The position numbers were made by a program, and so were the translations under genes. This document shows positions 1-28,675 of a stretch of 30,561 bases of DNA, in pieces (the stretch's first letter is position 1; each line of letters starts with the position of its first letter). Origin of the DNA: a virus; the IMG/VR virus record IMGVR_UViG_3300021326_000192; one strand, written 5' to 3'. The notes beneath the pieces are model-generated. The model had not been told where the DNA came from, ran no database searches, and worked only from the letters and a program-made list of their open reading frames with translations.

Positions 1-1128
1 ATGGATAACGAACTTTTAGATGAAATACACATGATGAGAAATCATGCGAAAAGGACACGAGAAGTATACAAGGATGCTGTAAACAAATACACTACTTTTT
101 GTTCAATGTCTTTGGAAGAACTGTTGAAAGAAGCAGAAGCTGAAGAAGATGCAGGCATCAAATGGAAAAAAAGAAAATTAAAAAGAAGATTGTTAACATT
201 CAGACAACACTTGTTGGAAAACTATGCATTGAATACAGTCAACACTCTTTTAAGACCTATTTTAACAATATACAAATATTTTGAGATTGAACTGTTCCCA
301 TTGCCTCCAGTCAACAAAAAGAATGTCACTACTTCAGAACCTATAAGATTCAGTGATTTGCCGGACAAAGAACTGTTAAGGAAAGCACTAAGTGTTGCCA
401 GTCCTTTAATGTCAGCTATCATTTGCTTTATGGTTTCCAGTGGTTGTGCTAAAAGAGAAGTGCTTAATTTAACAATCGGAGAGTATATTAAGGCCTTAAG
501 CGACTATACAGATAAGAAAGATATCTATGAAATAATTGAGGATTTGGGCGATGCAGAAAATGTAGTTCCTACATTCAATATCAGAAGACAAAAAACTGAT
601 AAGCATTACACTACCTACTGCAGTCCTGAAGCTGTCAATGCGATAAATTCATATCTGTTAAGCAGGAATGATCCTTTAACTAATGACAGACCTCTTTTTA
701 AGATAAATACAACATATCTTTCAGAAATGTTTGTTGCTATCAATGACGGATTGGGTTTTGGCAAAGTAGGATATTTCAACAGGCTGAGAAGTCATATGCT
801 CCGTAAGTTCCATGCATCTGCACTTTACAATGACGGCATGAGTCTGGATGATGTCAATGACTTGCAGGGAAAGGCTAAAAACAAAACCGATCAGTCTTAT
901 TTCATGACAAATCCTGAAGATTTGAAATATGAATACATCAAGCATCTCCATGCTGTAACTATAAGTAAGGAAGTTGAAAAGCTGTCTATCAAATCTCCTG
1001 AATTTATGCAAATGGAGAATGAAAAGAATAAGCTTGAATCCGAACTTGTTGACATTAGAAAAGAGATGGATGATGTTAGAGAAATGAAAAGAGAACTGGA
1101 AGGTCTCAAAGCAAAAGTTGGAAAATAA
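1..1128 (+). CDS. int: Tyrosine recombinase / integrase with C-terminal coiled-coil extension
   Basis: RSHMLRKFHAS (H-x-x-R), LQGK...DQSYF (catalytic Tyr), RRQKT (Lys), N-terminal helical core-binding region. Confidence 0.9.
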   Translation: MDNELLDEIHMMRNHAKRTREVYKDAVNKYTTFCSMSLEELLKEAEAEEDAGIKWKKRKLKRRLLTFRQHLLENYALNTVNTLLRPILTIYKYFEIELFPLPPVNKKNVTTSEPIRFSDLPDKELLRKALSVASPLMSAIICFMVSSGCAKREVLNLTIGEYIKALSDYTDKKDIYEIIEDLGDAENVVPTFNIRRQKTDKHYTTYCSPEAVNAINSYLLSRNDPLTNDRPLFKINTTYLSEMFVAINDGLGFGKVGYFNRLRSHMLRKFHASALYNDGMSLDDVNDLQGKAKNKTDQSYFMTNPEDLKYEYIKHLHAVTISKEVEKLSIKSPEFMQMENEKNKLESELVDIRKEMDDVREMKRELEGLKAKVGK

Positions 1129-20250: not shown

Positions 20251-21048
20251 TTATAAAACTTTATAATCTTCTTTTCTAATTTCTACGTCACGATCTCTTA
20301 AAATCAAATTTTCAATGGTATTATTAATTATTTCATTGAAAACATTTGTAAAATGATTAAACATATCTTCTTCAGTAATGTCATTAGATTCGAAATAACA
20401 TGAAAATACATGTTTGTTTTGAATGATGTGCTCTGATTCATTAAAGTTATCAATAGCTTGTTTATATTCAATATAATATGGGAAGGGGATATTTTGAATG
20501 TCATACGTAGGTGTATTTTCCATTATTGCCAAATATTTTAAAGAAGGAGCATATGTTGGATTGGTTATAACTATTTTTTCAAATTTTTTTTCAAAATCTC
20601 CTTTTAAAGTTATTGGTAAATCATCCATTAATTCTGGATTTGAAATGAGATTTACAAACTGCATAATAAGATATGCATGACCTGATAAACATTCTATCCC
20701 AACATCTTTATTTTCAACATTAGTTTTAATGTAATTATATACTAAAAGAGTAATTTGAATTTCTCTTTTTAAAAGATTAATAGCCTTTTTTGAATGAATG
20801 TATCTTAATTGTAAAAATCTTGAATTTAAATTTTCGTCAAATAATTCATTATTATATTTCATTAAATCCATATTAAATTTAAAATTAATTAAAATACCAA
20901 TCAATGTTATTGATCCCATAAACAAACTAGCAAACACAGTTTTTATTTCAATTGGAGTACAAACGAAAAAAATTATACCTATAGAAACAATTGCTAAAAT
21001 TCCCATTATACCTATTAAAAAATAAATCACGCTATTTTTAATATCCAT
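20251..21048 (-). CDS. Uncharacterised protein with two N-terminal transmembrane helices
   Basis: VIYFLIGIMGILAIVSIGIIFFVC and VFASLFMGSITLIGILI, followed by a soluble domain. Confidence 0.7.
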   Translation of the reverse strand: MDIKNSVIYFLIGIMGILAIVSIGIIFFVCTPIEIKTVFASLFMGSITLIGILINFKFNMDLMKYNNELFDENLNSRFLQLRYIHSKKAINLLKREIQITLLVYNYIKTNVENKDVGIECLSGHAYLIMQFVNLISNPELMDDLPITLKGDFEKKFEKIVITNPTYAPSLKYLAIMENTPTYDIQNIPFPYYIEYKQAIDNFNESEHIIQNKHVFSCYFESNDITEEDMFNHFTNVFNEIINNTIENLILRDRDVEIRKEDYKVL

Positions 21049-21077
21049 TTATATGCATCCCATATTAATTTCAATAT

Positions 21078-22064
21078 CTAATTAAAAATTAATATGGATT
21101 TTAAAGAATTAATATATTTCTCTTTAAGATTTTTAGGATTTTCCATGAAATAAGATGAATGAGTATTGTTCTTACCTCTTCCTTGAAGTGCATCAATTTC
21201 TTCTAAACTCAAACCATTTTCGTGATTATATAATGCTGAAGCATGAAATTTTCGTAACATATGACTTCTAAAACGATTATACTTTCTGACTTTACCTAAA
21301 TTTAAAGTTTCATTAATTTCGTTGAAATAATTATTCAAATAATCTAAATTAGTTTTAAATAACTTATCATCATTTTTTAATTTTCTTTTAGATATAATTA
21401 AATAATCTAAGATATAAGTAACGGCTTCTGGAGAACAGAAAGTAAAATAAAACTTATTAGTTTTTTGTCTTTTAAGTTTAAATGTTGGAACTACATCATT
21501 TCTCTTAATTAAAATAGTTATTATTTCATAAATATCATTACTATCATGATATTCTTTTGTGGAATCAATAAAATCTTGAATTGTAATATTCAATGTTTCT
21601 TGGCGAGCACAGCCACTACTGGAAATAAATAAAATAATTGCTTTCATAATAGGATTAGTGATGTTAATAGCATCTTTAATGATTTTTTTAGTAGGTAAAT
21701 CTTCAAACATTATTGGTTTTAATTTATTACTATTTTTAAGATTTAAAGGTGGCAAATTATGAATCTCAATTTCAAAATGCCTATAAATAGTTAAGATTCT
21801 TTGAAAATGAACTTTAACAGTGCTTATGAGGTATTGTTTTTGTAAATACGCTCTAAAATTTAATAATCTTTTTTTAATCCTACGATTTTTCCATCTAACT
21901 CCATTTTCCTCATCTTCTTCAGCTTCTTTAAGAAGTTCTGATAAAGACATGTTATTAAAATTTGTATAAAGTTTGATTGCATTGTTATAACCATAAACAG
22001 TTCTATTATTCAAATTTCGAATTTTAATGAACTCATTCATGATTTCTTTGTCTTCATGATTCAT
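21078..22064 (-). CDS. Tyrosine recombinase, candidate hsdS invertase and/or island integrase; paralog of 1..1128
   Basis: RSHMLRKFHASALYN identical to integrase 1; LQGR...THSSYF; directly abuts the hsdS cassettes. Confidence 0.9.
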   Translation of the reverse strand: MNHEDKEIMNEFIKIRNLNNRTVYGYNNAIKLYTNFNNMSLSELLKEAEEDEENGVRWKNRRIKKRLLNFRAYLQKQYLISTVKVHFQRILTIYRHFEIEIHNLPPLNLKNSNKLKPIMFEDLPTKKIIKDAINITNPIMKAIILFISSSGCARQETLNITIQDFIDSTKEYHDSNDIYEIITILIKRNDVVPTFKLKRQKTNKFYFTFCSPEAVTYILDYLIISKRKLKNDDKLFKTNLDYLNNYFNEINETLNLGKVRKYNRFRSHMLRKFHASALYNHENGLSLEEIDALQGRGKNNTHSSYFMENPKNLKEKYINSLKSILIFN

Positions 22065-22072
22065 AATAATAT

Positions 22073-23464
22073 TTGTTTACTTTCAGAAAAAATGGACATT
22101 TTTATGAGAAGATTGGTAAGAAAGGTGAACCTGTTTGTATTGATGATGAAATTCCTTTTGACATTCCAGATACTTGGGAATGGTGTAAGTTTGAAAATAT
22201 AATTGAGCTCATTTCAGGGAGGGATTTGAAAAAAACACAATATAATGATTTAAATAAAGGCATTCCATATGTTACTGGAGCTAGTAATATTATTAATAAT
22301 CAATTATTAATTAATAGGTGGACTGAGGAACCGGCAGTTATAGCTATAAAAAAGGATATTTTATTAAGTTGTAAGGGGACTATAGGTAAAATACTAATAT
22401 TAAATGAAGATAAAGTCCATATTGCTAGACAAATAATGAGTATTCGTTTAATAGATGAAACTTTAATTAATAGGGAGTATATTGTAATATTTTTAATGTA
22501 TTACGTTAATAATTTAATCAATATTGCTAAAAGTATGATTCCAGGAATATCTCGTGAAGATGTTTTAAAAATTAATATCCCATTACCTCCTTTAAATGAA
22601 CAAAAGAGAATGGTCAAAGAAATTAATAAGTTAAATCCATTAATTAATGAATATGGTATTAATAAAAAGAAATTAGATAAATTAAATTCTGAATTTCCAG
22701 ATAAACTTAAGAGTTCTATTTTACAGGAAGCTATTCAAGGTAAGTTGGTTCCTCAAGATTCTAATGATGAACCTGCATCAGTTTTATTGGAAAAAATTAG
22801 AGATGAAAAAGAAAGATTGATTAAAGAGAAAAAAATCAAAAGAAATAAAAATGAATCATATATTTTTAAAGAAAACAATCATTTTTATGAAAAAATTGGA
22901 AAAGAAGTAGTTGATATAACTAATGATTTACCTTTCGAAATTCCGGGCAATTGGATGTGGTGTAAACTAGAAAATATAACTTCAAATATCCATTATGGTT
23001 ATACTGCTTCAGCCCAAGAAGTAGGCGATGTAAGACTTCTGAGAATAACTGATATTCATGAAAATAATGTAAATTGGGATTCAGTACCATATTGTGTTAT
23101 TAGTGAAGATAAATTAGCAAATTACATTTTAAGAAATAGAGACATAGTCATGGCTCGTACTGGAGGAACAATTGGAAAATCCTATATAATTAATAATTTA
23201 AATAAAAAAGCTGTTTTTGCTTCTTATTTAATTAGAATTATTCCATTGAAAAATATTAATGAAAATTACTTGAAACAATTTTTTGAAAGTCCTTTATTTT
23301 GGAGTCAATTAAGAGATAACACTAAAGGAACAGGACAACCCAATGTCAATGCAAAATCTTTAAAAAATTTATTGATTCCCATACCTCCATTTATTGAACA
23401 GGAGATAATTGTTAATAAAATTGAAAAAATATTTAATGAAATTAATTTAAGATTAAAAGTTTAA
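22073..23464 (+). CDS. hsdS: Inverted, probably silent hsdS cassette: TRD-A, central conserved region, TRD-B
   Basis: Two TRDs each preceded by HFYEKIG and followed by P(L/I)PP..EQ; lacks the N-terminal conserved block; TTG start only 8 nt from the divergent recombinase start. Confidence 0.85.
   Translation: MFTFRKNGHFYEKIGKKGEPVCIDDEIPFDIPDTWEWCKFENIIELISGRDLKKTQYNDLNKGIPYVTGASNIINNQLLINRWTEEPAVIAIKKDILLSCKGTIGKILILNEDKVHIARQIMSIRLIDETLINREYIVIFLMYYVNNLINIAKSMIPGISREDVLKINIPLPPLNEQKRMVKEINKLNPLINEYGINKKKLDKLNSEFPDKLKSSILQEAIQGKLVPQDSNDEPASVLLEKIRDEKERLIKEKKIKRNKNESYIFKENNHFYEKIGKEVVDITNDLPFEIPGNWMWCKLENITSNIHYGYTASAQEVGDVRLLRITDIHENNVNWDSVPYCVISEDKLANYILRNRDIVMARTGGTIGKSYIINNLNKKAVFASYLIRIIPLKNINENYLKQFFESPLFWSQLRDNTKGTGQPNVNAKSLKNLLIPIPPFIEQEIIVNKIEKIFNEINLRLKV
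22126..22161 (+). repeat. Inverted repeat irA, pairs with 24567..24602
   Basis: 36-bp perfect match TGAACCTGTTTGTATTGATGATGAAATTCCTTTTGA in the same codon phase in both hsdS copies. Confidence 0.9.
22395..22503 (+). repeat. 109-bp perfect inverted repeat inside TRD-A, pairs with 23604..23712 in TRD-A'
   Basis: Base-by-base identity checked by eye, within ~450 bp of close inverted similarity. Confidence 0.9.
22866..22903 (+). repeat. Inverted repeat irB, pairs with 23984..24021
   Basis: 38-bp perfect match TTAAAGAAAACAATCATTTTTATGAAAAAATTGGAAAA in the same codon phase. Confidence 0.9.
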
Positions 23465-24028
23465 TTCTTCAAATAATAAATCTATTCTTTCAACAATTCT
23501 TTTTTGTTCTTCTAAAGAAGGTAATGGAATATTTATTTTTAAAACATCTTCACGAGATATGCCTGGGATCATACTTTTAGCAATATTGATTAAATTAGTA
23601 ACATAATACATTAAAAATATTACAATATACTCCCTATTAATTAAAGTTTCATCTATTAAACGAATACTCATTATTTGTCTAGCAATATGGACTTTATCTT
23701 CATTTAATATTAATATTTTGCCTATTGTTCCTTTACAACTTAATAAAATATCATTTTTTATAGCTATAACTGCAGGCTCATCAGTCCATCTATTAATTAA
23801 TAATTGGCCATTTATAATATTGCTTGCACCAGTAACATATGGAATTCCTTTTTTTAAATCATTATATTGTGTTTTTTTCAAATCTCTTCCAGAAATAAGT
23901 TCAATTATATTTTCTAATTTACACCATTCCCAGTTATCTGGAATATCAAAAGGAAGTTCATCATCAATGCAAATAGGATTGTTTTTTCCAATTTTTTCAT
24001 AAAAATGATTGTTTTCTTTAATAATAAA
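23453..24028 (-). pseudogene. hsdS: Start-less silent hsdS cassette TRD-A' (near-duplicate of TRD-A)
   Basis: The open frame extends upstream of the ORF-track start: FIIKENNHFYEKIGKNNPICIDDELPFDIPDNWEWCKLENIIELISGRDLKK... It follows TAA TAA of the expressed hsdS. Confidence 0.85.
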
Positions 24029-24031
24029 TTA

Positions 24032-24817
24032 TTACTCAAGTACTTTATTTAAATTATGTACTTTTTCGATTATCTTTTTTTGTTCATTATACGGAGCTAA
24101 AGGAATTAAATAATTTTTAATAGTTGATAAATTTAGTTCTTTTTGTTTTGTTGACCCGCCTGCTTTAGATTCTATTACTAACTGTACTGTTGGGCTTGCT
24201 AAAAATAAATAGATAAATTCTTGTAAAATATATTCTGCAAATGGTCTTATAATTGTAACATGACTATCTGCAACAGCCCATCCATATTTATTAACAGATT
24301 CATCATACAAACCAACCCTGCCTAATGTACCTAAACCTGTCGAATTCCACATTATATCTTTATTTTGTAATATACGTTCTTCATTATATGAATCAACAGT
24401 TTTTGGATCAATAAATTTTGCTTTTTCGAGTGAGAATCCCGACCATTGATTGCACTTTTGAGCAACAACAGGGAATTTCTTAATTTCAGAATACTTTGGT
24501 GATTTTCCTCTTTGTATATATTTACAAACACTATCTAATCTAACCCACGCCCAATTATCTGGAATTTCAAAAGGAATTTCATCATCAATACAAACAGGTT
24601 CATTATCACCAATCTTTTCATAGAAATGATTATCCCTTTTATAAATAAACGATTCGTTTTTGTTTCTTTTGATTTTTTTCTCCTTAATTAATTGTTCTTT
24701 TTCTTCACGAATTTTTTCTAATAAAACAGAAGCGGGTTCATCATTTGGATCTTGTGGAACTAATTTACCTTCCATTGCTAATTGAAGTATTGAGTTTTTT
24801 AAATCTTCAGCTTTCAT
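24032..24817 (-). CDS. hsdS: Type I specificity subunit in the expression site; single-TRD (TRD-C), 261 aa
   Basis: AGGTGA RBS, directly downstream of hsdM; begins with conserved block MKAEDLKNSILQLAMEGKLVPQDPNDEPASVLLEKI. Confidence 0.9.
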   Translation of the reverse strand: MKAEDLKNSILQLAMEGKLVPQDPNDEPASVLLEKIREEKEQLIKEKKIKRNKNESFIYKRDNHFYEKIGDNEPVCIDDEIPFEIPDNWAWVRLDSVCKYIQRGKSPKYSEIKKFPVVAQKCNQWSGFSLEKAKFIDPKTVDSYNEERILQNKDIMWNSTGLGTLGRVGLYDESVNKYGWAVADSHVTIIRPFAEYILQEFIYLFLASPTVQLVIESKAGGSTKQKELNLSTIKNYLIPLAPYNEQKKIIEKVHNLNKVLE

Positions 24818-24825
24818 AGACTCAC

Positions 24826-26295
24826 CTATTCAATATCCAATATTTTTTTAATTTCAGATAGTGTTTTATCTATTTTAGCTTCGAGTTCTGCTCTTTCTTT
24901 TTGATAATTTGCAATTAACTCATCTGGAGGTAAAATTATTTCTTCTTCATGTGGGAAGCCACATAAATCTAAATTATAGTTGTTATCTTTAATTTCATCA
25001 ATTGTATATAATCTAGCTTTATCAAAGCCGTCAATTTCTATAGGTTGTTTATCGTCCCACCATGATACACAATCATCAAAATGTTCTAATTTCATTGGTT
25101 TTGTTTTAGAAAAGTGTTTATAACCTTCAGGCATGTCAACTCTATAAAACCAAGTTTCTTTAGTTCCTTTACTTGATTTATCAAAAAACAGAATATTTGT
25201 AGTAATACTTGTATATGGTGCAAAAACGCTTCCTGGAAGTCTTATAACAGTATGCAAGTTAAATTCATCCAATAGTTTCTTTTTAATAGATACTTTTATA
25301 TTATCAGTTCCGAATAAAAATCCATCAGGTAAAATAACTGCAGCTCTACCATTTTCTTTTAATCGGTACATAATAACTGACATGAATAAATCTGCAGTTT
25401 CAGAACTTCTTAAATCTTTAGGGAAATTGTCTTGCACTGTTTTTTTCTCACTTCCACCATAAGGAGGATTCATTATTACAACATCAAATTTTTCATCTTC
25501 CGTATAATCCAATACATTCCTGTCAAATGAATTTCCATGAATAATGTTTGGATTATCAAGATCATGTAACAGCATATTAGTTGCACAAAGCATATAAGGT
25601 AAAGCTTTCTTTTCTATACCAAATACTGCATTCTTATATAATTCACGATCAGTGGTTGATGAAACCTTATCATCTAATATATTAAGTACTGAAGTTAAAA
25701 ATCCACCAGTTCCACATGCAAAATCAGCTATTTTTTCATTTAACTCTGGATGTAACATTAATGCCATGAAATCTGTTACTGCACGTGGAGTATAGAATTC
25801 TCCAGCATTTCCTGCACTTTGTAAATCTTTAAGTATTTTTTCATATATTTCACCAAATGCATGTTTGTCATTGTAGTCATCAAAATTTAATTCATCAATT
25901 ATGTTTATGACTTGCCTTAGAAGAACACCATCCTTCATATAATTATTATTGTCTTCAAAAACATCTTTAACGATTTTTTGACCCATTGGTGTGTCTTGAG
26001 ATATTTCTAAATTTTTAAGTGTTGGAAACAACTCTTGGTTGATAAAGTTAAGTAAGTCATCTCCAGTTTTAGCTTTACCATCTTTTTTATCAACAGCCCA
26101 ATTTCTCCATCTTAAATGTTCGGGGATGATGGATTTATAATTGTCTTCATAAATTTCCCATTCTTCTTCTTGAGCATCATATATTTTTAAAAATAGTGTC
26201 CAAGTCATCTGTTCAATTCTTTGTGCATCACCATTAACACCGGCATCATTGCGCATAATGTCTTGAATGCTTTTAACAAAATTATTTAATTCCAT
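24826..26295 (-). CDS. hsdM: Type I restriction-modification methyltransferase (m6A)
   Basis: Motif I DFACGTGGF, motif IV NPPY, GEFYTPR. Confidence 0.95.
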   Translation of the reverse strand: MELNNFVKSIQDIMRNDAGVNGDAQRIEQMTWTLFLKIYDAQEEEWEIYEDNYKSIIPEHLRWRNWAVDKKDGKAKTGDDLLNFINQELFPTLKNLEISQDTPMGQKIVKDVFEDNNNYMKDGVLLRQVINIIDELNFDDYNDKHAFGEIYEKILKDLQSAGNAGEFYTPRAVTDFMALMLHPELNEKIADFACGTGGFLTSVLNILDDKVSSTTDRELYKNAVFGIEKKALPYMLCATNMLLHDLDNPNIIHGNSFDRNVLDYTEDEKFDVVIMNPPYGGSEKKTVQDNFPKDLRSSETADLFMSVIMYRLKENGRAAVILPDGFLFGTDNIKVSIKKKLLDEFNLHTVIRLPGSVFAPYTSITTNILFFDKSSKGTKETWFYRVDMPEGYKHFSKTKPMKLEHFDDCVSWWDDKQPIEIDGFDKARLYTIDEIKDNNYNLDLCGFPHEEEIILPPDELIANYQKERAELEAKIDKTLSEIKKILDIE

Positions 26296-26309
26296 TCCAA
26301 CCCTCCTCC

Positions 26310-28601
26310 CTAATCAACATACAACTCTTTTTGTAAATCGTGTATAGCATTCAAAAAACCATCACGCCCACCAAACTCAGAAACGATCTTTTTAGTACTT
26401 GCAATTCTTCTAAAAGGGTCATTTTCAAGGATTCTAATATTTTCTATATCTGTTATTCCTTCACTAGAATACTTATCAAGTAATCCTTCAAGTACTTGGC
26501 GAGCAATACCTTCATATTTATTTAAGTAATCACGTTTTTTGACGTTGTTCGCTCTTTCTGAACGAGTAAGCGGTTCTTTATCGAATGCAATATGGCATAT
26601 TAAATCAAAGTCATCCATTTCATCATTACCAGACAATTCTCTTAATTCATCTAAAAAGATTTCATGTTGGTATAACTCATCAATAATAGCTTGTTTTTTA
26701 TCGTATGAATTCCATGTTTTAATAAATTCTTCTAATGTGGAATATTCTCTTAAGATATTGTTTCTAGTAAAATCAATGAAATTGTCTGTTTTTAATTTCC
26801 CATGTTCATCATAACATTGGTTTTGTTCTAAAATAACAGTAACTGGAACTCCATTAACTCTTGGAACAACTTTAGGTGGTTCAACGGGTGGGTCAACAGG
26901 ATCTGGAATAGGTTTAGGAGGTATATCTTCTAAAATAACAACTGGTTTTCCATCAAATGCTGGATCAGCGAATTTACGGGTATTATTTCTGAAGTCCATA
27001 ATTGTGAAGAAATTTTTTCCTAAGTCTTCACGTAATCTAGTACCTCTTCCTATAATTTGTTTAAATTCTGTCATGGATCCGATATTCTTATCTAAGACTA
27101 TTAATTTAGTTGTTTTTGAATCGACACCTGTTGACATTAACATAGATGTTGTTGCAATGACTGGATATTTTTCATGTGAATCTATGAAGTAATCTAATTG
27201 TGATTTGCCGAATTCATCATTGCCTGTTATTCTTACAACATATTTGGAATTCTCAGCAACCAAATCATTATTGGCATTGACCAGAGCTTGTCTCATTCTT
27301 TCTGCATGATTTGTATCTACACAGAATACAATTGTTTTATCAAACCTATTTGTTCTCTTTAGATATTCTGTTATTTTAGAAGCTACGATTTCTGTTCTTT
27401 CATCAATTATAATGTTTTTATCAAAATCTAGAGTATTGTAAATTCTATCTTCAACCGGGTTTCCATGTATATCCAGTTTATCTTTAGGTGGCCTATAGCC
27501 ATTTGCATCAATGTCAGTTAAAATTCTAATTACTTTGTAAGGTGCTAAAAATCCGTCTTGTATTCCTTGTTTTAAACTGTATGTGTAAACTGGTTCACCA
27601 AAGTAGGTAATGTTTGAAGCTTGTTTTGTTTCTTTTGGTGTAGCTGTCATACCAATTTGAGTTGCGGAACTAAAGTACTCTAAAATTTCTCTCCATTCTG
27701 AATCAGCTTTCGCACTGCCCCTATGACATTCATCAACAAAAATCAAATCAAAAAATTCAGGATCTAAATCTTCATAAGGTTGTTTATCTGCATCAGGAGT
27801 AACTAATTGTTGATAAAGTGCAAAAAATACTTCATAAGAACTGTCCAATTCATGTTTTTGGACTTTGGTCATGACTTTTTCGAATGGTTTGAAGTCTTGT
27901 GTCATAGTTTGGTCAATGAGAATATTTCTGTCTGCTAAATACAAAATTTTCTTTTTAGTTCCAGATTTCCATAATCTATGGGCAATTTGAAATGCTGTGA
28001 ATGTTTTTCCAGTACCAGTTGCCATTACTAATAAAATTCTATTTTTTCCATTAGCAATTGATTCAATTGTTCTATTAATTGCAATTCTTTGATAATAACG
28101 TGGAATTTTGGGTTTTTGTCCATTATCTATATGATAAGGTTCTCTTATTATATCTTCAACTTCATCAGAAATTTTCTTTTCATGAATCATTCTCTCCCAT
28201 AACTCTTCAGGAGAAGGAAATTCTTCTAAATAAAGTTCTCTTTCTTTTCCAGTTATCATATCGTGTTCTAAAAATCCACTACCATTGGAACTGTATACAA
28301 AAGGAACATCTAAAATTTCAGCATAATGTATTCCTTGTTGCATGCCATCACCAACAGCATGTTTTTGATCTTTAGCTTCAACAATAGCTAACGGTAAATT
28401 TGGTTTATATGAAAGAAGATAATCAGCTCTTTTTCTTGCACCTCTTTTAGCTTTCATGCCTTTGATTATCATTTGCCCATCGGTGAATGAATATTCAAAA
28501 CGAATTTGGGTTTTATCCCATCCGGCATTTTCAATTGAAGGTGTAATGAATTGATATTTTACATCTTCTTCAGAATAATTATTGTAACTCATTATTGACA
28601 C
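26310..28601 (-). CDS. hsdR: Type I restriction subunit, EcoAI/EcoEI (Type IB)-like; ATG 28592 is an alternative start
   Basis: ADYLL...AIVEAK nuclease motif, MATGTGKT, DECHRG, MTATP, QIIGRGTR, EcoEI-like C-terminal domain. Confidence 0.95.
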   Translation of the reverse strand: MSIMSYNNYSEEDVKYQFITPSIENAGWDKTQIRFEYSFTDGQMIIKGMKAKRGARKRADYLLSYKPNLPLAIVEAKDQKHAVGDGMQQGIHYAEILDVPFVYSSNGSGFLEHDMITGKERELYLEEFPSPEELWERMIHEKKISDEVEDIIREPYHIDNGQKPKIPRYYQRIAINRTIESIANGKNRILLVMATGTGKTFTAFQIAHRLWKSGTKKKILYLADRNILIDQTMTQDFKPFEKVMTKVQKHELDSSYEVFFALYQQLVTPDADKQPYEDLDPEFFDLIFVDECHRGSAKADSEWREILEYFSSATQIGMTATPKETKQASNITYFGEPVYTYSLKQGIQDGFLAPYKVIRILTDIDANGYRPPKDKLDIHGNPVEDRIYNTLDFDKNIIIDERTEIVASKITEYLKRTNRFDKTIVFCVDTNHAERMRQALVNANNDLVAENSKYVVRITGNDEFGKSQLDYFIDSHEKYPVIATTSMLMSTGVDSKTTKLIVLDKNIGSMTEFKQIIGRGTRLREDLGKNFFTIMDFRNNTRKFADPAFDGKPVVILEDIPPKPIPDPVDPPVEPPKVVPRVNGVPVTVILEQNQCYDEHGKLKTDNFIDFTRNNILREYSTLEEFIKTWNSYDKKQAIIDELYQHEIFLDELRELSGNDEMDDFDLICHIAFDKEPLTRSERANNVKKRDYLNKYEGIARQVLEGLLDKYSSEGITDIENIRILENDPFRRIASTKKIVSEFGGRDGFLNAIHDLQKELYVD

Positions 28602-28625
28602 AACATTATAATTCTATTAATATAT

Positions 28626-28675
28626 AGTTTATTTTTTGATAAAATAAACTTTTTTATATGAAAGCAATATTGCTT
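28626..28675. promoter_or_regulatory. Two palindromes upstream of hsdR, candidate operators
   Basis: AGTTTATTTT-N5-AAAATAAACT (28626..28650) and AAGCAATATTGCTT (28662..28675). Confidence 0.35.

Follow-up and report, generated by a model that had tools for sequence, protein, structure and literature searches.

The R-M cassette and its silent hsdS segments

The DNA analysed here, called the window throughout, is a 30,561-nt stretch of the IMG/VR virus record IMGVR_UViG_3300021326_000192, and the subject of this work is a Type I restriction-modification (R-M) locus with a putatively invertible specificity gene, hsdS, on its minus strand (21073-28672). This portable 7.6-kb cassette comprises hsdR, hsdM, the hsdS segments and a recombinase gene, and blastn comparison with L055 and L056 found it to be shared, at about 90% nucleotide identity, with a chromosomal locus of Methanobrevibacter smithii. 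The first operon gene, hsdR (26310-28601, minus strand), encodes a restriction subunit with the Pfam domains ResIII, EcoEI_R_C and HSDR_N; its likely ATG start at 28592 gives a protein of 760 aa, matching the calls in other assemblies, and its score of 1117 bits against the NCBIfam EcoAI/FtnUII equivalog NF046051 (cut-off 550) places it in the EcoAI/FtnUII family of Type IB. It is followed by hsdM (24826-26295, minus strand), which encodes the N6-adenine methyltransferase subunit (Pfam N6_Mtase, 2.9e-69, and HsdM_N), and by the hsdS expression site (24032-24817, minus strand), which in its current state encodes 261 aa with one Pfam Methylase_S domain, namely an N-terminal conserved region (N; 24603-24817), a linker and a target recognition domain (TRD), TRD-C. 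The complete hsdR-hsdM-hsdS set lies in one operon with gaps of 14 and 8 nt, and because these gaps are so short a single promoter upstream of hsdR seems probable. HsdM was found in just 3 of 103 Methanobrevibacter species-representative genomes, which indicates that the cassette is accessory.

Additional hsdS sequence lies between the expression site and the recombinase gene, and it has neither start codons nor promoters of its own. Behind the stop codon of the expressed gene there is a silent TRD-A' cassette (23453-23983, minus strand; open reading frame (ORF) 23453-23881), which has a Pfam Methylase_S match and no start codon. The opposite strand carries a silent, 5'-truncated hsdS (22073-23464, plus strand), a 463-aa frame with two Methylase_S domains that runs through a linker, TRD-A, a central conserved region (CR) and TRD-B. 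The N-terminal conserved region is missing from this frame, which matches residues of a natural 518-aa allele, P0001, at 100% identity. TRD-A' and TRD-A form a 494-nt inverted repeat of 90% identity with a 109-bp perfect core. An earlier sequence-only reading of this DNA had described hsdR-hsdM-hsdS followed by start-less or inverted hsdS cassettes and a tyrosine recombinase, and the ORFs and Pfam domains bear this out.

Inverted repeats were located by an exact-match scan, and they lie inside the hsdS coding sequence with matching reading frames. The irA pair (36 bp, perfect) has one arm in the expression site (24567-24602) and the other at the start of silent TRD-A (22126-22161). The irB pair (38 bp, perfect) has one arm ahead of silent TRD-A' (23984-24021) and the other between the central conserved region and TRD-B (22866-22903). 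A third perfect pair of 20 bp, which we call the c-site, lies in the conserved-region coding sequence (24663-24682) and in the silent central conserved region (22826-22845), within a 171-nt inverted repeat of 82% identity (24609-24779/22729-22899). The perfect repeats are homologous coding linkers that have been held identical amid adjacent sequence of 72-87% identity, which is far beyond chance, and a linker coding for HFYEKIG stands ahead of all four TRDs. When the inversion products were computed in silico, inversion at irA gave an in-frame 517-aa N-A-CR-B protein, and inversion at irA followed by irB gave an in-frame 507-aa N-A-CR-A' protein. Taken over all three repeat classes, the computed inversions yield six DNA states and five products: N-C (the current 261-aa half-subunit), N-A-CR-B, N-A-CR-A', N-B and N-A'. 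The irA and irB pairs with their codon phase, the two long products (of which the first had been put at about 517 aa) and the HFYEKIG word before every TRD had all been proposed from the letters of the sequence, and the repeat scan, the computed frames and the translations reproduce each of them.

Alternative arrangements in related contigs and in M. smithii

Orientations were compared among contigs from different samples that encode exactly the same recombinase or HsdM protein, after each had been split into modules. Contigs with 100%-identical recombinase and HsdM (sister contigs) carry the same TRDs at 99-100% nucleotide identity, on either strand and in first or second position; their modules are A, A', B and C, together with D and X, which are absent from the window. 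One such pair, L028 and L029, comes from two different ENA assemblies; the left 1,591 nt and the right 1,417 nt agree without a mismatch, while the middle 1,793 nt are exact reverse complements bar one indel. This inversion is bounded by a 71-bp perfect inverted repeat in conserved-region coding sequence, and the sequence of the c-site arm at 22826-22845 also occurs within that repeat. L033 differs from L028 by an outer inversion through a 106-nt repeat, which has shifted TRD-X from the expression site to the recombinase side. The window itself compares with L044 in the same way: there are 0 mismatches over window 26400-24670 and 22111-18068, and the 2.6-kb block between them (22081-24682) is inverted with 2 mismatches. 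L044 also holds 807 nt extra, consisting of one conserved region and TRD-D. The left crossover of this pair falls within 24670-24682, where 13 nt of identity are shared inside the 20-bp c-site repeat, and the right crossover falls in the linker ahead of TRD-A.

The predicted products also have natural counterparts. Three alleles with a common N'-A-CR prefix end in B (P0001, 518 aa), A' (P0006, 508 aa) or C (P0010, 522 aa), and P0001 and P0006 equal the predicted 517- and 507-aa proteins apart from the N-side linker; in both P0006 and L028, TRD-A' is the second TRD of the expressed gene. A 517-aa HsdS on L038 was considered as the product of the irA inversion and rejected, as it is of a different lineage, with TRD W and a B copy of 95% identity; P0001 is the actual near-match. 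Crossovers were seen in three repeat classes, one crossover needed no more than 13-20 nt of identity, and every rearranged state retains an open reading frame. The sequence-only reading had suggested comparing the orientation in related assemblies, and this comparison turned out positive, with the same TRDs found in other orders and orientations between near-identical contigs of different samples. Its set of repeats held for irA and irB and was incomplete, since a third class, that of the conserved region, is no less often used than these two. Because flanks of 1.4-4 kb without a mismatch stand beside inverted blocks, inversion must be fast relative to point mutation. In one further contig, L037 (11070-12308; JGI 3300024303), TRD-C occurs on each of the two strands, and the contig breaks off 59 nt after the second copy begins. 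The assembler seems here to have joined two shufflon states, and if so the sample contained both.

Relative to the sister contigs, the window lacks TRD-D and one conserved region (807 nt), and its copy is, on this comparison, best described as a reduced derivative of the five-TRD version. Derivation by irA and irB inversions alone was ruled out, as the breakpoints lie at the c-site and in the linker ahead of TRD-A and 807 nt have been deleted. A c-site inversion of the five-TRD version would put two linker copies in direct orientation, and a deletion between these copies would then probably leave N-C in the expression site. The resulting 261-aa HsdS corresponds to one repeat unit, aligning to either half of its relatives of about 520 aa. 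Truncated HsdS proteins have been reported to act as homodimers; a structure prediction for the 261-aa homodimer (two copies, 48-row alignment) scored 0.07, a value that speaks neither for nor against dimerisation. The exact reduced arrangement is shared by the window, L027/L034 and L036, which are 100% identical over 13-17 kb and for that reason are not independent and probably represent one strain.

The same cassette was found outside the provirus. A 91%-identical recombinase occurs under the NCBI name M. smithii in 331 blocks of the collection searched, in a chromosomal neighbourhood where hsdR (760 aa), hsdM (489 aa) and then an hsdS shufflon come before it. In the M. smithii loci L055-L062, the cassette is about 90% identical in nucleotide sequence to that of the window, lies between ordinary host genes and is present in several flipped states. 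Between L055 and L061 the whole 3.4-kb shufflon is inverted at 99.9% identity, and L056 and L057 differ by a clean inversion of a 1,981-nt block; L058 and L060 are degenerate forms without intact R-M genes or intact hsdS. Judged by these loci, the cassette is not virus-specific and appears portable between provirus and chromosome.

The candidate invertase and competing explanations

The recombinase gene that adjoins the shufflon encodes Rec2 (21078-22064, minus strand; 328 aa), a tyrosine recombinase and the candidate invertase. Its family call rests on a PHROG integrase match (8.9e-13) and on the recognisable residues R154, H268-x-x-R271 and Y305. Rec2 is 50% identical to Int1, the integrase of the provirus, and blastn against a phage collection placed it at about 66% nucleotide identity to the integrases of the M. 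smithii virus MSTV1 and of vir080; the recombinase was the sole match in that search, which found no record with an hsdS shufflon. We do not take Rec2 to be simply the provirus integrase, and this has been rejected as the main explanation, as Int1 occupies the provirus end and Rec2 moves with the cassette, which it accompanies both in the provirus and in the M. smithii chromosome. Homologues of Rec2 (63-67% amino acid identity) were also found in M. olleyae CP014265 (L063:145-5987) and in a rumen contig (L065:246-5984), where they lie beside an MmeI-like methyltransferase gene of 1135-1168 aa (Eco57I and TaqI_C domains) that has an SNF2/PLD gene upstream. The methyltransferase gene's 3' part recurs in inverted form (531 nt, 98% in L063) around alternative TaqI_C-type ends, and in Methanobrevibacter this appears to be a second kind of R-M specificity inverton. 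The recurrence of the Rec2 family beside two kinds of R-M specificity inverton supports, indirectly, its role as an invertase, and Rec2 is most likely the enzyme that makes the inversions. Its start codon lies only 62 nt from the irA arm (22065-22125), so that part of the Rec2 upstream region may be invertible and Rec2 expression could depend on the state of the shufflon. An 88%-identical Rec2 also stands at the end of a 6-kb contig, L046 (SVBA01000033.1), that was binned as 'Erysipelotrichaceae bacterium SIG216' and is probably a mis-binned Methanobrevibacter contig.

We consider it likely, with a probability of about 0.8, that window 21073-28672 is a portable Type IB R-M cassette with a multi-site invertible hsdS shufflon, that it is carried as cargo by a provirus and that Rec2 is most likely its enzyme. 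In such a switch, one promoter upstream of hsdR would drive hsdR-hsdM-hsdS, and the fixed part would be the 5' end of hsdS only, namely its start codon and N-terminal conserved region. The promoterless TRDs A, A', B and C would be held downstream on both strands, each behind the same coding linker and with one central conserved region among them. Recombination between inverted copies of three repeat classes, a (TRD start), b (the HFYEKIG linker) and c (a conserved-region helix), would flip nested segments and so join different TRDs in frame to the fixed 5' end. Judging from Type I enzymology, each full-length product would direct HsdM to a different bipartite site, altering methylation and restriction, and switching would presumably be stochastic within populations. 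The hsdS shufflon proposed in the sequence-only reading is therefore supported as an interpretation of the locus.

Several observations weigh against this interpretation. The variation observed lies between samples, and the window's exact reduced allele set has been seen in one orientation only, in the window, L027/L034 and L036, so the window copy may switch rarely or be locked. Its current product is a half-subunit, which may lack activity. The score of Rec2 against Pfam Phage_integrase is below the family cut-off, and searches gave no meaningful match for it among solved structures and none in NCBIfam. The three repeat classes have no obvious common core; the archaeal integrase of pTN3 recombines identical segments with low sequence specificity (PMC8371274). 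Because some of the repeats are 71-108 nt long, homologous recombination could contribute to the inversions.

One competing explanation is that the arrangements are rare accidents of homologous recombination between hsdS segments, fixed in individual strains, and that the window copy is a decayed and locked remnant with a truncated, inactive HsdS. Crossovers at repeats that differ in sequence and in length (13-108 nt) and share no core would be expected under it, as would the 807-nt deletion, the half-size hsdS and the single orientation in assemblies of the window's allele set, and degenerate versions, L058 and L060, exist in M. smithii. However, rare events do not readily account for mismatch-free flanks of 1.4-4 kb beside the inverted blocks, for a crossover that needed at most 13-20 nt of identity, for perfect 36-38-bp repeats kept amid 72-87% identical surroundings or for the open frame kept in all rearranged states. 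Moreover, the recombinase accompanies the cassette in different species and is also associated with a second type of R-M inverton, and we therefore consider this explanation unlikely. Somewhat less probable still is that Rec2 is an integrase that moves the 7.6-kb cassette, or an element whose end it marks, with the inversions being made by Int1 or by host recombination. The position of Rec2 at the very edge of the shared cassette (21073) fits such a role, as does its kinship with Int1 and the MSTV1 integrase (50% identity and about 66% at the nucleotide level, respectively), and the closest bacterial shufflon has an unrelated recombinase that is placed differently. Nevertheless, the M. smithii cassette has Rec2 without an Int1-like partner nearby, and in two unrelated R-M types, inverted copies of the specificity gene have Rec2-family genes as immediate neighbours. 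Direct repeats around the cassette were not seen, although no search aimed at them was made.

That the differing arrangements are assembly artefacts at inverted repeats seems very improbable. Many contigs do break within the shufflon: the recombinase is at most 0.5 kb from a contig end in 7 of 7 genome-contig relatives, and four contigs of the genus (G079:C15, G102:C1, G102:C2 and G052:C46) end inside hsdS sequence, while L037 looks chimeric. However, the MEGAHIT contigs across the repeats were built with k=141 words, which exceed the length of the repeats (36-108 nt); the same clean states, with all frames intact, come from independent assemblers and studies; and a chimeric contig would itself imply that both states occur in one sample. 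The contig breaks near the recombinase and inside hsdS also count in favour of the shufflon, and an active switch may explain why Methanobrevibacter assemblies break at this locus.

Known systems, provirus setting and neighbouring genes

Bacterial examples of invertible hsdS loci have been characterised in detail (PMC4948785, PMC7641763); they alter phage defence and genome-wide methylation in pathogens and gut symbionts, and 'epigenetic invertons' have been surveyed across 16 bacterial phyla (PMC7672463). The SpnIII/cod locus of Streptococcus pneumoniae, whose hsdS inversions are made by the tyrosine recombinase PsrA/CreX (PMC4948785, PMC7672463), shares with the present locus a complete hsdRMS operon, promoterless inverted hsdS cassettes, an adjacent tyrosine recombinase and three in-frame inverted-repeat classes of differing length and sequence, from which several HsdS alleles arise at one expression site. 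However, SpnIII is bacterial and chromosomal and its recombinase belongs to another lineage than Rec2, whereas in the present locus, borne by a provirus in an archaeal host, HsdS begins with a conserved region (the Type IB plan) and some of the products are half-size alleles. For SpnIII, both the methylomes and the dependence on the recombinase have been demonstrated, while our locus is described at the sequence level. The phase-variable Type I R-M systems of Bacteroides fragilis (PMC7641763) and the epigenetic invertons (PMC7672463) represent the same kind of switch and are enriched, as here, in host-associated (gut) organisms, but these surveys concern bacterial phyla only. A switch borne by an archaeal virus is found in the haloarchaeal virus phiCh1, where, as cited in PMC8371274, the tyrosine recombinase Int1 of that virus inverts DNA and swaps protein ends in the tail fibre; that switch acts on a virion adhesin, whereas the present one would act on an R-M specificity subunit.

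For archaea, a systematic survey of programmed inversions left out both archaea and viruses (PMC9881135). Supplementary table 3 of Atack 2020 (PMC7394358) lists archaeal hsdS genes with inverted repeats, among them entries for Methanobrevibacter oralis, M. cuticularis, strains AbM4 and JH1, Methanobacterium formicicum, Methanosphaera stadtmanae and others; the main text of that paper is silent on archaea, and Chanin 2023 cites the table as a hint of archaeal phase variation. In contrast to the present analysis, those entries are a computational list without orientation variants, recombinase analysis or viral context. Our literature search found no demonstrated archaeal hsdS switch, no virus-borne archaeal case and no paper joining invertons with Methanobrevibacter, and the reviews of archaeal R-M, archaeal tyrosine recombinases and prokaryotic epigenetics that were consulted describe no archaeal hsdS switch. 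The sequence-only reading had known of no characterised archaeal example, which holds for demonstrated cases but must be qualified by the archaeal repeats already listed by Atack 2020. The principle of the switch is thus known, and what would be new is the archaeal domain and the provirus carrier, together with comparative evidence of activity.

In sequence, the nearest locus is a Type IB locus of Akkermansia muciniphila (CP036293, L054), at 67% identity for HsdM (window 24826-26295 against L054:5520-7001) and about 51% for HsdS. Its subunits also follow the N-CR/TRD/CR/TRD plan, and the locus likewise contains silent inverted hsdS genes, a tyrosine recombinase and inverted repeats, the last at the three places where they are found here. 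However, the Akkermansia recombinase (269 aa) is encoded between the expressed gene and the silent ones and has no BLAST similarity to Rec2, and the locus is bacterial and chromosomal, whereas the present one is archaeal and provirus-borne. The simplest reading of this pattern is that the R-M genes and the shufflon crossed between gut bacteria and methanogens by inter-domain transfer, with the recombinase being exchanged. Despite the 67% HsdM identity, the G+C content of the cassette is like that of the archaeal host.

We tentatively raise a wider possibility, which goes well beyond the locus itself and which we hold to be doubtful as a whole: that a Methanobrevibacter recombinase family derived from archaeal-virus integrases serves as a general set of R-M specificity invertases, acting on both Type I shufflons and MmeI-like invertons and giving switchable methylomes to gut and rumen methanogens including M. 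smithii, with the cassette taken from gut bacteria, its invertase replaced and the provirus copy diversifying virion methylation. If this were true, archaea would possess 'phasevarions', including in M. smithii, the dominant archaeon of the human gut, and varied methylation of progeny virions would hedge against hosts that hold the same system in another state. In any case, the present locus and its M. smithii counterpart offer comparative evidence for active switches in rumen and human-gut methanogens and define a testable system of 7.6 kb, with three repeat classes, one candidate invertase and known alternative alleles. Such switching may also bear on variable transformation or virus infection among methanogen subpopulations.

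The window is part of contig C8 of a 2.5-Mb genome (34% G+C), and the host must be a methanogen, because mcrA is present on the same contig. The closest public relatives of the studied genes are all Methanobrevibacter metagenome-assembled genomes (MAGs) from rumen, goat and human gut. The R-M genes have viral neighbours to the left and to the right, and the edge of the element, next to host DNA, is occupied by an integrase. One flank holds this integrase, Int1 (1-1128, plus strand; 375 aa), which is a paralogue of Rec2, adjoins a host trkA-like gene and is not part of the switch, together with genes for collagen-like fibres and a Phage_tail_C (tail-tip) domain; in the opposite flank, a Phage_capsid_4 (capsid-like) gene starts at window position 30562, directly after the window. 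Given these flanks, the R-M cassette is best placed as cargo within a Methanobrevibacter provirus. The proposal of an archaeal mobile element, made from the sequence alone, agrees with mcrA and the flanking viral genes; the provirus location has held, but the cassette is not specific to the virus, since the M. smithii chromosome also carries it. A 265-aa ORF without a family match (20251-21048, minus strand) follows 30 nt after Rec2 in every provirus contig, and because the M. smithii cassette occurs without it, this ORF belongs to the virus and not to the switch.

Sister proviruses hold differing defence genes beyond the capsid-paralogue block that adjoins hsdR (L038:1-2700 and L040:1-2320); these include GmrSD along with a pseudomurein endoisopeptidase-like gene and its accompanying acetyltransferase, or else a PstI-like R-M system, and the region beyond this block is a variable cargo island. 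In the genome of the window, an M78 (IrrE-like) peptidase gene followed by a DUF4411 gene lies downstream of the viral genes (L042:4486-6156; C8:86197-87867), and near the element's right end the two may form a toxin-antitoxin pair or a regulatory one.

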